Assembly (NCBI GenBank): GCA_964016885.1
Contig: OZ024741.1
Coordinates: 75,144,001-75,208,000, forward strand
Source of the DNA: Eledone cirrhosa
Taxonomy: Eukaryota
Direction of reading: 5' to 3'
Length of the DNA stretch: 64,000 bases
In this document: one piece after another, positions 1,991-61,840 of the stretch
Position numbering within the stretch: position 1 is the stretch's first letter
How the letters are laid out: each line of letters opens with the position of its first letter
Position numbers and translations under genes: made by a program
Notes under the pieces: generated by a model
Told to the model about the DNA's origin: nothing
The model's database searches: none
The model's input: only the letters and a program-made list of their open reading frames with translations

Positions 1991-2979
1991 TATATATGAA
2001 ACAAAGTTGTATTTGTTGTGGAAGAAATGAAAAAGATGACAAATACCAACAATTCTGGTTGAATATATATCATTACTTTACTTCAGCAAAAAGGAAAAAA
2101 TATGATTACTTCGAATCATAAATATAATATTTGATTATAGTGTTCACGAATGAATATAGTGTTCAGTAAAGAAAGCTTCAGTGTTATGCACAAATCTTTT
2201 ATTTACCATGGAATGTTCCCTTAAAAGATTAGTGACAAGTTGCAGTTGACATTGCTTGGCTGGATGGTATAGTGATAGTAAGCCATTATATATCCAAGCT
2301 CTGTTGTCTAGGTGAAGAGGCAGAAGATTGAGTGAGCTAGGACCACACAGCAGCCTATTTATAATTACCTCTAGTTATTTTACTGATAGATAAGAGATGG
2401 CTTCAGAATATGTTCTCCTTCCTACAACTGGTGCTGTAAATCCTACCATCAGGGAAAATTTATCTATTGTCTTCCCTGCGATAGAGGTCGTAGGTCAGTC
2501 ACTTGGTGGGCATTAGAAAACATTTCTTTTACTCAAGCCAAAATCTGCCTTGGGTGAGCTAAACATGGTCCTCTGACCTGATTCTTTCCCTAAGGGTCAA
2601 CCCGTCCTACCCATGCTAGCATGGAAGATGGACGTTAAAAGATGATGATGATCATCATCATCATCATCAACGTTTAATGTTGCTGATATATGTTAATATG
2701 TATATATATATATATATATATATGTAAACGGAAAAAATGAAACGAAATTTCATTTCTCCCTCTTAGTATGGCTGTTACTTAAATATAAGTATGTATACGT
2801 ACATACATGTATGTATACAGACGTACAGTAGTATGTATATATATATATACATACATGCACACATATATATATGTTCGTATGGATTTACCGAATATTTATT
2901 TTGTAAACAAACATCCTGAATTAAGCCGTACAGTGTTTAGCAACCATCGTTGCCCTTTTGTTCAACACTGACAAAGGAA

Positions 2980-3019
2980 CGATGTACTAGTTTCAAGCTT
3001 ATTAGCTATCGTCAGCATC
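2980..3019 (-). ncRNA. Minimal type I hammerhead ribozyme motif
   Basis: Minus strand reads GAUG-CUGACGA-UAGCUAAUAAGCUU-GAAA-CUAG-UA-CAUC: stem I GAUG/CAUC, stem II AGCU/AGCU, palindromic ACUAGU in stem III, GUA site. Confidence 0.75.
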
Positions 3020-3037
3020 ATCTGGCAGGAAGGTATA

Positions 3038-3078
3038 CGGTGCTGACGATAGCTAATAAGCTTGAAACTAGTACATCA
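3038..3078 (+). ncRNA. Minimal type I hammerhead ribozyme motif
   Basis: ggtg-CTGACGA-tagctaataagctt-GAAA-ctag-ta-catc, the mirror copy of 2980-3019. Confidence 0.72.
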
Positions 3079-3334
3079 TTCCTTTGTCAGTGTTGAACAA
3101 AAGGGCAACGATGGTTGCTAAACACTGTACGGCTTAATTCAGGATGTTTGTTTACAAACAAACCGAGCATTATAATAAATGTTCGGTAAATCCATACGTA
3201 CATATATATATATGTGTGCATGTATGTATATATATACATACTACTGTACGTCTGTATACATATATGTATGTACGTATACATACTTATATATATATATATA
3301 TATATATATATATATATATATATATATATATATA

Positions 3335-4130
3335 GTTCAAAATAATAATAAACAAACGCAGGAGTAAATGTTACATGGTGTTATTAGCTTCACACTTGGT
3401 GAGAGTGGGAGGTGTTGTTTACAACGTTTCAGACATAAGCCCTTCATCAGGAGAGTGGGGGGGATTCCAAGAAGGAGTGACGGGGGAGTTAGCAGGAAAA
3501 ACATGAAAGAATGGGAAAAATAGAAATAAAAATAAATATAAAACATGAAGTCAAAATAAATAGAAACAGAATTAAACGGAATATATAAAGAAAACAGAAT
3601 TTTTCAAGAAAACAGAATATTAAAAAGTAAGAGGGGCGTATGGATCCGAGAAGGGACGGGTGTTGTGGTGCATAAGGGGTGGGTGGAGGGAGAGAGAGGG
3701 GGGAAAGAAAAATGGAGTCCGAGCAGGGATGGCAGAAGGTGAGGTGTGTGTGTGTGTGTGTGTGTGTGTGTGGAAGCATGGATGTAAGTGTGAGAATCTG
3801 GGAGAAAGCGAGTGTATGTCTTTGTGGGTTTTAAAAAACCATTGTGCGTGTTGGAGTGGAGTGTATGTCTGTGTGTACAGTCCCTGTATGGATGTTTGTG
3901 TGTGTGTGGATGGAAAGGGTTGGATGGGGTGAGATAAGATTGTGTCGAATCCGGAGGCGGTGTGGGATGGAGTGTGGGTGTATGTGAAGATGTGCACGTG
4001 TGTGTGTGTGTGGTTAAGAGAGGATGATATGGGTTTGTGTGAAATGTGTAGTTGCGTGTGTGTAAAAATGGTGCAAGTGTCTAAGTTTCTGAATGGATGT
4101 CGGTGTGTATGTATTTGGATGGAAAAGATC
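3335..4130 (-). mobile_element. PLE 3' region/pLTR remnant with HHR-like core at 3423-3450
   Basis: Minus strand CUGAUGA-AGGGC-UUAU-GUCU-GAAACGUU. The terminus abuts (TA)n and resembles the pLTR at 57345-57470. Stem I is not evident and the 5' limit is uncertain. Confidence 0.5.
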
Positions 4131-58900: not shown

Positions 58901-59104
58901 AAAAATAGTAAATAATAATAAATAAGTTAGAATGAGGATGGTAAAAAATAAGTAAAAAAAAAAATAAGCGAAGATAATACGTCGTTATGTGGACCAGTGA
59001 GAACAAATACACGCAAAGACAAAACTACGTTTATGGTATAAATGGAATCATTCGACTTATATTCTATTTAGGAAACTGAATGATTCTCGGCTTCGGAGTT
59101 AAGA

Positions 59105-59243
59105 ATAATTGTTTCTACTTTTGGCACAAGGCCAGCAATTACCAGTGTATTACTGGTACTTTATTTTATCGACCCCATAAGGATGAAAGGCAAAGTTAAG
59201 CTCGGCGGGATTTGAACTCAGAATGGCAAGGGCCGTAACTCTA
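59105..59243 (-). mobile_element. S1 SINE, reverse strand, 5'-truncated
   Basis: Reverse complement of the S1 core and B box. Confidence 0.85.
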
Positions 59244-59879
59244 TAAATAAATTAGTTGAACGAAAATGACAGAGGTTATTAAAATCATAAATGTAATAAT
59301 AATTAAATATATACAGACACACATCTATACACGTACATACACGTGCATACGCGAAAACACACGTCATGCATGCATATACATGCACGCACACATAAACACG
59401 CGCACACGTACGTAAACTAACACGACACATGTACCTGCACACATACGAGCGTATACACCAAATACACATATGAAAATATATGTGTGTGTATATATACATA
59501 TAATTATATAAACGTATATAAATATACACACATAAATACGTATATAACGCACACACACACATACCTACAGGTAAATACACATATGTTCACCAAACGTACA
59601 TATACCAAAACCCAATGTACACATATACACACCTTACATACGGGCAAACATGCAAACACGCATACCAATATACATGCGCAAACAGGAAATACACATATAC
59701 ACATAACCATATACACACATACCAGTATATATAATATATACACCTATAACAAATACAAGCATATATACGTATGAGAAAGCATACGTACCTCCACAAAACA
59801 TACGGGTAAGGTATACTTACCTATACAAATAAGTAATGGTATAAACATAAAATATACTTAGCTACCACATCAAGACGTA

Positions 59880-61058
59880 AATTATCCGCGTATTGATCGT
59901 ACTATCCGTTAGGGTATAATGTGGGACTGTAATACAGGAAAGTTTTATGCAATTTGTGTTTATAAGCCGAAATTGCCTCAGATTTTTTGTTTAAGATGTG
60001 ATCATTGGCGTAGAGTATTTCCAGGGCTTCAGCGGCGCAAATATCGCATGGTCTTTTAGTTCCGGTATACGATCTAGCTTTAGCTAGGATCTCCAAGTGT
60101 AAGCTATATTGGGTGTGGTTGTCTTTTAAACTCCAGATATAAGCTGAAAGTGACGTCATATTCCTTCTTTTACAGTTAATACTAGCTACAGGGTTGAACG
60201 TGTTACTATTGCCAGGTAATTTAGCTAAATTTGAAGCAGTGATGTTATGCGCAAAGTTAGGAGCCGTGGAGTAAGATATTTTAACGGTATTTCTATTAAA
60301 AATCTTATTATATTTTTATGTGCTGATGGGAAATGTTTCTTAATAAGGGAGAGAAAGATTTTAGCTAATGGTGTGGCCACCTCCATAATATATAGTGGGT
60401 TATACCATATAATGCCTCTTAATCTATTTTTCCTAGGTTTATGCTCATACTTATTATATGCTACCTTATCGACAAATCCACTCCGAGCACGATCTTCATT
60501 GTAATATGTGGAATGGTCGGTGAAAATATGCTCGTTTGTAGGTAGACGGGAAAGCCTCAAAGAAACGTTTCTTACCAGCGTCTTGGTTATGCTGGCAGGA
60601 TAGTTAGAATGCTTACTGATGTAATTAAGAGTATCATTCGGCTTTCTATACGGGTAGTGCAAGCCATTCGACAAATTGAGAGTAACGTCGAGGTAGTTTA
60701 CGATCGAAGGTTGGCCTCAACTTATATGGAGAGGTTGAAGCCTTTAAAGAAGGCTGTGAGTTCTTTTCTAAACCTGTCGCAAGCGCGGGGACTGCATTTT
60801 GTCATGGTCAAAAGACCGTCATCGCGGTACAAACCACCGCACACATTAGGGAATTCTTCCTGAATAGAGAAAAGAAGGAAATGGCCGATAAGATCTGTAA
60901 CCTCCGCCGAATTGCTGGCGCCCATACTCACGTCGAAAGGGGTACTATTAGATTTTTTTATCCAAATAGAGTCGTTGAAATTAATCACTGACTTACGGGC
61001 ATTCAGGATGACATCAACTTCGAAATCCTTAACCACCGTGAGCGTTTTAGCGAAATTG
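59880..61058 (-). pseudogene. Decayed PLE ORF, paralog of 32187-34352
   Basis: ILNARKS...[23 protein letters not shown]...GGLYRDDGL, PYRKPND, IIWYNP, TSLSAYIWSLKD, CDIC. Confidence 0.9.
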
Positions 61059-61649
61059 ATGTATATATGTATATATATATATATATGTATTTATATATAT
61101 ATATATATATATATATATATATATATATATATATATATATATATATATATATATATATATATATATATATATATATATATATATATATATATATATATAT
61201 ATATTGGAAAATGTGTGTAATCCTTGGTTCATTTAGGTATATTAAGACAGGGGGGAAGAAAAAATGGCTTCACTTGTGCTTTCAACAAATTTATTTTCTT
61301 CACAAAATCCAAAAAGAATTTTTTTCCCGGATTAGAAAAAAAATTTTTTTTCTTAAAAAAAATTATTTTATAAATTAAGTTAGGTCTTAGGAGTTCTTGG
61401 TTAACGTAGGAGGTATTGTTTGGTTTTTAGAACGACCTTTCACGCTGAGGTGCGCTTGTCAAACTGATGCGTATGTGGTGTGTTGTTCTATATATAGGGA
61501 TTCAACATGTCTGTGGTGTGGTGGGGGTTATATATATATATATATGCATATATGTATATATATATATGTATATATATATATATATATATGTATATATATT
61601 TATATATATATGTATATATATGTATATATGTATATATGTATATATGTAT

Positions 61650-61840
61650 ATATTGGTAAAAGGAAAAGAAAATGCTGACAAATTGTTCCCAGTGAAAAAT
61701 AGTTTAATTAGGAATAAGTAAAAATTAGTAATAGTACTGGTTAGTATTCAGTTTTGGTTTTAAGTTTTACCGGTTGCGTATTTCTAATGCTTTTCAAAAA
61801 TAATTTTGAGATAGAGCGCCCGTGATGTTTGCTCTAATCT
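61650..61840 (-). mobile_element. Family C pLTR remnant
   Basis: Near-identical to 42878-43068. Confidence 0.75.

Follow-up and report, generated by a model that had tools for sequence, protein, structure and literature searches.

Penelope-like elements (PLEs) equipped with an endonuclease (EN+ PLEs) include a Hydra clade that prefers (TA)n microsatellites as its target and leaves inverted 5' copies and one-sided tails (Craig et al. 2021, PMC8557442, Fig. 2 legend). Inverted 5' copies, one-sided tails and the (TA)n bias are found in PMC8969392 too; the supplement of PMC8557442 lists an octopus Hydra family with (TA)n preference, Hydra-1_Obim, and that paper names the origin of tandem, inverted and tailed PLE insertions as an open question. 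The subject here is a 64,000-nt stretch of contig OZ024741.1 of Eledone cirrhosa (genome, 3.0 Gb), called the window throughout, in which ten short inverted modules lie at (TA)n runs and, as a rule, join a longer copy of a repeat end head-to-head with a shorter copy of the same end.

Three further bodies of work bear on these modules. The pseudo-long terminal repeats (pLTRs) of PLEs carry type I hammerhead ribozymes (HHRs), many unrelated families per genome, with palindromic stem III and a U3-A8 variant (Cervera and de la Pena 2014, PMC4209133), including 'dual min-HHRs' on opposite strands ~100-700 bp apart (PMC4209133). In vitro, the green anole PLE Poseidon cuts and extends both strands of an AT-rich target (Frangieh et al. 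2024, PMC11167929): two RNA start sites bound the tail, a dimer is predicted, HHR cleavage is not needed, and the start site does not differ between strands when measured in bulk. Inverted insertions are not addressed in the available portion of that account. Mobilisation of animal non-LTR retrozymes by PLEs has been proposed (PMC7229834; bioRxiv 10.64898/2026.07.22.740005), and an octopus repeat annotation gives Penelope families, with ribozymes unmentioned in its accessible text (PMC13282606). The structure, the TA targeting and the ribozymes are thus already published, and the architecture as such is not new.

An initial annotation of the window had listed ten inverted modules with their 3' ends outward. 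Comparison of the window with itself recovers all ten at or near the positions first proposed, with arm identities of 65-95% and outward 3' ends in every case. Their placement in or beside (TA)n holds in that at least one end of each abuts a run; it is weakest at 16985, which has a short TA run on the right only and a left end ~77 nt from the nearest long run. The ten modules fall into nine repeat families, A to I. They are named below by their start in the initial annotation and, being inverted pairs, are given without strand (ORF, open reading frame):

2723-3289, family A (module 2783), putative 430-nt retrozyme unit: left-arm tail 2723-2782, arms 2783-3289, right arm flush with (TA)n.
6477-6765, family B (module 6574): tail 6477-6573; truncated within loop II in both arms and lacking a complete HHR; no ORF link in the loci fetched.
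16985-17231, old family C-like module (16985): left arm with partial tail; no HHR core.
31153-31600, family D (module 31295), Hydra-type PLE end: tail 31153-31294.
38098-38300, family E-like (module 38105): long arm left (32099-type end), short arm right (32016-type end); cut in stem II.
42374-42762, family G (module 42445), an ORF-less unit of 1.3 kb: tail 42374-42444; minus-strand HHR with intact core boxes (42505-42545), its plus-strand counterpart decayed.
42847-43121, family F (module 42847), weak Neptune-type ORF link: both arms reach the long end; no complete core.
50698-51710, family H (module 50815), Hydra-type PLE end: left tail ~110 nt; right arm with internal deletion.
53221-53424, family I (module 53301): tail 53221-53300; HHR 53321-53359 (minus); partner core mutated; no ORF link in the loci fetched.
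54937-55134, family E-like (module 54933): long arm on the left and short arm on the right, each at (TA)n; truncated within stem II.

What the initial annotation overlooked is the asymmetry of the arms, a quantitative addition to what is described of PLE insertion. Each family has two fixed 3' ends, 27 to ~190 nt apart (long-to-short spacing, in nt: F 27, A 55, C 56, G 69, I 72, E 83, B 98, H 110, D 130 or more). In eight of the ten window modules one arm carries a tail of ~55-145 nt and the other stops at the fixed shorter end; the exceptions are 16985, with its partial tail, and 42847, which has the long end on both arms. The nine families were searched genome-wide (1,092 to 3,769 first-look candidates per family), 40 candidates being scored and 30 loci fetched for each. 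At 240 loci of eight families (family A, with tandem copies that confuse pairing, is left out of the partner-end and allele counts), 116 inverted partners were counted. The short end is where 89 of them stop, to within a few nt; another 7, of family I, stop at a second short site, 2 reach the long end, and 18 have other end points. The queries for this count carried the tail, so that short-short pairs could not appear, and it includes the window copies and seven family H loci that are segmental duplicates. An unbiased sample of 60 evenly spaced 10-kb stretches (600 kb) yields 17 pairs of the same families, of which 14 are long-short, one is long-long, none is short-short and two are unclassed; in two of the 14, the long arm begins within ~6 nt of the short site. 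Solo arms also stop at the short site (36983-37219, plus strand). A literature search, with subscription papers and bioRxiv supplements outside its range, returned no statement of a long-short rule or of twin priming for PLEs in the text it covered.

Family E has a near-complete parent element in the window, which serves to place the two ends on a template (RT, reverse transcriptase; UTR, untranslated region):

31904-35623, plus, near-complete PLE assigned to the Hydra clade, family E: pLTR1, ORF, 1.1-kb 3' UTR, pLTR2, (TA)n.
31908-32001, plus, family E HHR: U3-A8 core, 54-nt stem-loop II, 5-bp stem III, GUC site.
32187-34352, plus, RT and GIY-YIG ORF: 721 codons, one in-frame stop (33096-33098).
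35437-35623, plus, pLTR2 of family E: HHR core with a G5 change.

The pLTRs are 187-nt direct repeats (31904-32090 and 35437-35623, 98% identical), a layout repeated in one fetched locus, L021, and this pLTR family supplies the inverted pairs 38105 and 54933. The short end is at 32016 and the long end at 32099: both lie upstream of the ORF and both finish in TA. TA also stands at the 3' end of 28 of 30 family E loci and 26 of 30 family H loci. (A corresponding count of 3/30 for family D was set aside as an artefact of alignments that stopped before the true long end.) The start sites of Poseidon differ in lying inside its ORF and in not being homologous to the cut DNA (PMC11167929). The protein has RWR, DKT, YRDD, CxCx5C, YIG, CxxC and CxH motifs and lacks GxKF/Y; CCHH is absent by eye. 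DKT, CxCx5C, CxxC, CxH, the missing GxKF/Y, an HHR in the pLTR and the (TA)n target are shared with the Hydra clade (PMC8557442), and on these motifs, read by eye against the published alignment, family E is assigned to that clade, with RWR where the clade has RWK. Its ~3.5-kb unit (31904 to 35437) exceeds the size of Hydra clade elements, 'generally' under 3 kb (PMC8557442). Database searches give 35 relatives, mostly unnamed, 33 of them over 41-98% of the query; a Pfam scan had no match for seven PLE ORF pieces of the window. Likewise shared with the Hydra clade of PMC8557442 are the inverted 5'-truncated copy and the one-sided tail of the modules; by comparison with that description, tails here are 27-190 nt (theirs, 30-40), long-short pairing and the allele sharing reported below do not occur in the passages covered, and the family E HHR has its U3-A8 core, 54-nt stem-loop II and 5-bp stem III. 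A further Hydra-type PLE ORF, likewise broken, lies at 59902-61090 (minus), with 74% identity to family E over a short stretch.

Twin priming is a familiar event of LINE-1 retrotransposition, where two primers from one target site work on one RNA and generate an inversion; there the position of the second site varies and the arms are free of overlap, whereas here that site is fixed and the arms usually overlap. The modules are best explained as 5'-truncated, head-to-head insertions of several PLE families and their non-coding passengers in (TA)n, probably made by an endonuclease-directed form of twin priming. Of the initial proposal, the several unrelated PLE families and the (TA)n target are supported, and priming at both DNA ends agrees well with what is observed. 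Twin priming is the simplest model because of the behaviour of a PLE in vitro (PMC11167929) taken together with the long-short and allele counts. The PLE endonuclease would cut both strands in (TA)n; each cut TA end would prime reverse transcription at a different fixed site of the same source RNA, a dimeric RT-endonuclease presenting the 'tail' site to one end and the short site to the other, with the TA at both template sites pairing with the TA primer; both cDNAs would stop early, often at HHR stems, and their ends would be joined via short inverted microhomology, by blunt joining or with filler. A strict two-site form, in which a dimer holds one RNA, tail site at one end and short site at the other, and the trailing RT displaces the leading cDNA, is offered more tentatively, at a little under an even chance. 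If it is true, one two-site rule would account for tail, inverted pLTR and retrozyme spread alike, and some 10^5 natural traces of it lie in this genome, left by Hydra-type, Neptune-type and non-coding families. For the in vitro assay, the long-short rule and allele sharing predict that the two strands use different start sites within one event; the bulk comparison of strands in PMC11167929 neither shows nor excludes such pairing in single events.

Sequence variants tie the two arms of a module together. At non-CpG sites, with seven duplicate loci dropped, the long arm agrees with its own partner at 99 of 130 lineage alleles (alleles that the long arm has in common with other loci), and with arms of other modules at 342 of 1,318. 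Private alleles recur in the module's own partner arm in 46 of 219 cases and in other arms in 67 of 2,322. The 5' truncations of the arms are independent: at 104 junctions it is the long arm that extends further 5' in 45 cases and the short arm in 23, with equal reach in 36. Of the same 104 junctions, 42 have an overlap of at least 2 nt, 29 are near blunt and 33 contain filler. In families D, F, G and I a single junction recurs among loci whose flanks are unrelated, at a short natural near-palindrome next to the HHR or within it; in D and F this near-palindrome is odd in length and takes either central base (D: six A and two T of eight; F: four A and three T of seven), a pattern better explained by two annealed cDNA ends than by a hairpin loop of 1 nt.

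These junctions also weigh on the alternative that a cDNA primed at (TA)n snaps back to make the second arm, the endonuclease then trimming that arm at a fixed site before joining. Such fold-back would give arms that share private and lineage alleles; short fold-back palindromes do exist at some junctions (31852-31908, 36938-36988), and in PMC8557442 the tail is put down, as the likeliest cause, to an endonuclease resolving an intermediate. The short arm's longer 5' reach in more than a fifth of junctions, however, means that the tailed arm cannot always have been made first; the recurrent junctions have 1-nt centres of either base; the short site also terminates solo arms; and in vitro two RT start sites mark the limits of the tail (PMC11167929). 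On balance fold-back is an unlikely general origin of the modules. The arms concerned, with their neighbours, are:

31654-31908, minus, family F arm: 57-nt fold-back 31852-31908; head-to-head with family E, 5-nt overlap.
36983-37219, plus, family C (Neptune-type) pLTR arm: stops at the short end; HHR 37025-37059; 51-nt fold-back 36938-36988.
38337-38941, minus, other Hydra-type PLE 3' end: GIY-YIG end, 3' UTR, decayed HHR near 38374-38403.
38904-39166, plus, family C arm with tail: HHR 38945-38979; head-to-head with the PLE end at 38337-38941.

Head-to-head junctions of two families occur in the window at 31852-31908 and 38904 and in loci L115, L156, L226 and L260; in two cases the first family forms a short fold-back at the joint. 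They were considered as proof of two RNAs per event and rejected, later insertion plus deletion giving the same outcome.

Several observations count against twin priming as the common origin of the modules. Partner arms disagree at 31 of 130 lineage sites, and allele sharing fits equally well two RNAs of one locus, fold-back or later gene conversion, among which it cannot separate; gene conversion between arms could add to the sharing. A same-family inverted copy stands at the junction in 120 of 240 loci, so about half are without such a partner; the others abut (TA)n or unrelated DNA or run past the flank, and ~6 of the 240 join another family head-to-head. Long-long modules exist, 42847-43121 among them, and the hotspots of junction reuse may be inflated, the queries having begun at junctions of the window itself. 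Neither family B nor family I showed an ORF link in the loci fetched.

TA repeats are fragile, and the initial annotation had suggested that the modules patch breaks at such microsatellites, the PLE RT filling spontaneous breaks at (TA)n without the aid of its own endonuclease. The great abundance of (TA)n (119 runs of at least six units per 64 kb in the sample) and the use of both ends would suit this idea. Yet the ORF-linked families keep the GIY-YIG domain and Cys linker tied to (TA)n targeting, as encoded by (TA)n-preferring clades (PMC8557442), their ends are precise, family-specific and at fixed template positions, and there is no sign of host benefit; break patching is accordingly improbable.

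Movement as a MITE-like hairpin unit (MITE, miniature inverted-repeat transposable element), for which high-copy short inverted repeats and an identical junction at some loci might speak, or a chance pair of independent back-to-back insertions, is most improbable and largely refuted: ends are asymmetric, junctions and arm lengths vary widely within families, arms reach PLE 3' UTRs and ORFs, the identical-junction family H copies are segmental duplicates, the true terminal-inverted-repeat (TIR) element at 41497-42287, which has an 8-bp target-site duplication (TSD), differs in appearance, and independent insertions would give neither long-short pairing nor shared alleles. The module ends are unlike the symmetric TIR ends of MITEs; a TSD is unreadable inside (TA)n. 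It is easy to misannotate the modules as MITEs or microRNA hairpins. Movement of whole modules, suggested by seven family H loci with one junction, was rejected, their flanks being shared; the family H module lies inside a larger segmental duplication on several contigs (L256-L258, L262, L263, L268, L270). The contrasting element at 41497-42287 is a 791-bp palindromic TIR element of hAT-type, MITE-like appearance, with 91% arm identity.

In line with the initial reading of the arms as PLE ends, five families are joined to PLE ORFs: E, D and H of Hydra type, C and (weakly) F of Neptune type. Families D and H run upstream into Hydra-type endonuclease ends, only the linker and EN end being seen. 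Family C extends into an ORF that encodes RT and GIY-YIG and has a Cx4CxxC linker of Neptune type, YVDD, and Cys/His at the CCHH positions; the linker before GIY-YIG, YVDD and these Cys/His residues are shared with the Neptune-type PLEs of PMC8557442, among which it is placed by motifs. For family F a Neptune-like endonuclease region was found in 6 of 15 further loci, a weak link (E 2e-8 to 4e-6). Family B yielded no ORF link in 30 loci with 1.5-kb flanks, and family I none in 45 loci.

At least two families, A and G, are independent ORF-less tandem units rather than truncated ORF-bearing PLEs. Family A is a non-coding tandem unit with a period of 425-433 nt, present as arrays in loci L041 and L050 with HHRs at unit spacing. 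It shares the non-coding tandem unit and a type I HHR per copy with described animal retrozymes (PMC7229834; bioRxiv 10.64898/2026.07.22.740005) and, as judged from its sequence, qualifies as a retrozyme by the published definition; at (TA)n it has inverted ends and a tail of PLE type, features absent from the passages covered of those accounts. In family G, the ORF-less unit measures ~1.3 kb and its tail continues into the next unit, where described retrozymes measure 170-400 nt. Both the 430-nt and the 1.3-kb unit would be mobilised in trans by PLE enzymes, and ORF-less units with the same ends support the published idea that PLEs move retrozymes. A 310-nt tandem unit with an HHR in each copy, at L358:2145-3235, looks like another retrozyme family.

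Hammerhead motifs were sought with a custom type I descriptor against block-wise dinucleotide shuffles of the window (stricter descriptors miss the U3-A8 core and long loop II). Seven matches are found, far above the shuffled background (mean 0.12, maximum 2, 60 shuffles), eight when a longer loop II is allowed, and 11 at loose settings (mean 0.46, maximum 2, 50 shuffles), two of these 11 being AT-rich noise. With the addition of cores recognised by eye or in a permissive scan, the total of intact and decayed motifs comes to ~15-19, so the 'about 15' initially proposed was a fair estimate. Rfam gave no HHR at gathering score in the window, and none among the 150 of 206 E-value matches listed, which included microRNA-like noise. 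Motifs of modules beyond those listed above, and solo motifs, are:

2985-3015, minus, family A HHR, core to cleavage site: palindromic stem III CUAG.
3043-3073, plus, family A HHR of the partner arm, core to cleavage site.
17666-17715, plus, solo HHR, family G-like: ~50 nt upstream of (TA)n.
31360-31461 (minus) and 31471-31534 (plus), family D HHRs: long loop II; stem III CAAUUG.
50859-50979, minus, family H HHR: long loop II; stem III CGAUCG.
62155-62200, plus, solo HHR from an additional family: stem II of 12 bp; located ~110 nt upstream of (TA)n and beyond the range first annotated.

The modules had been described as ribozyme hairpins, a weak description: a complete core is present in five of ten (both arms of 2783 and 31295; one arm of 42445, 50815 and 53301), modules 6574, 38105, 42847 and 54933 are cut inside stem or loop II and retain the GAAA half only, and no core was found in 16985. 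Palindromic stem III is common (CUAG, CAAUUG, UAUAUA, CGAUCG), as first noted, without being general: three families have a stem III of 3-5 bp and one family is non-palindromic. The epithet 'minimal' fails, loop II measuring 30-100 nt in many motifs. The window motifs thus share with PLE HHRs (PMC4209133) the pLTR location, type I topology, palindromic stem III, U3-A8 and opposite-strand pairs, and differ in that many have a long loop II or stable stem III in place of the minimal form.

Among fetched loci the scan detects an HHR in 26/30 of family E, 26-27/30 of I, 20/30 of A, 14/30 of G, 12/30 of D and 7/30 of B; the cores of families C and H are recognised by pattern. Family F (L181-L210) gives none in 30 loci by scan, its core being non-canonical in most copies: most readable copies have CUGAUCA...CAAA, with both catalytic G positions changed. 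Its top matches are 93-97% identical, and an apparently young and abundant family with these changes is consistent with cleavage being dispensable. Folded singly, motifs give z-scores from +0.7 to -2.3, and the predicted minimum-energy structure of the family E motif is not the HHR fold. In the three modules that were folded, the core is predicted to pair fully with the antisense arm. With the two copies of a module placed on opposite strands, and with full pairing of the core in these three, the HHRs are unlikely to act inside modules; in finished modules they are truncated or predicted to be locked in the hairpin, and likely inactive. We infer that the HHR is a passenger of the pLTR.

The high density of modules, which the initial annotation had singled out, is not special. 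The window holds seven flush-plus-tail inverted repeats, and the sample 32 in 600 kb, or 3.4 per 64 kb; strict HHR matches number eight in the window and 3.1 per 64 kb in the sample. The window is therefore some two- to three-fold above the genome average and not an outlier of its kind; it has 69 (TA)n runs of at least six units. The sample's 29 strict HHR matches fall to 22 once seven from one AT-rich satellite are set aside; ten shuffles gave 0-4. Twenty of the 22 lie no more than 300 nt upstream of a (TA)n run (random positions, 18%). The count extrapolates roughly to 10^5 intact motifs genome-wide, as against 2,000-9,000 per genome in PMC4209133, where different descriptors were used; the modules supply natural variants of the hammerhead in very large numbers.

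The window also contains further pieces of PLE-like character:

3335-4300, minus, solo PLE-like 3' end directly past the (TA)n that borders module 2783: HHR near 3420-3450 with intact core boxes and a weak stem I.
37279-37680, no strand, extra old inverted module absent from the initial list: 68% arm identity; left end flush with (TA)n.
57314-58405, minus, solo Neptune-type PLE 3' end: GIY-YIG fragment, 3' UTR, decayed HHR near 57437-57466, (TA)n.
61654-61838, minus, family F solo arm with non-canonical core.

Other repeats share the window with them. A 700-bp unit at 10563-13382 is present in three tandem or partial copies, 92-94% identical, with TA-rich microsatellite between; a broken Helitron spans 22043-25894 (Pfam Helitron_like_N; helicase-like ORFs), broken DNA-transposase-like ORFs (DUF4371) lie at 28831-30124, and RT ORF pieces (RVT_1) of a long interspersed element (LINE) at 55235-57239 end at a long (TA)n run. 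A repeat resembling a short interspersed element (SINE) occurs in many copies, 85-97% identical (18167-18380, 20227-20418, 53835-54236, 59104-59245, 62931-63129), and is inserted in the 3' UTRs of PLE copies elsewhere in the genome.

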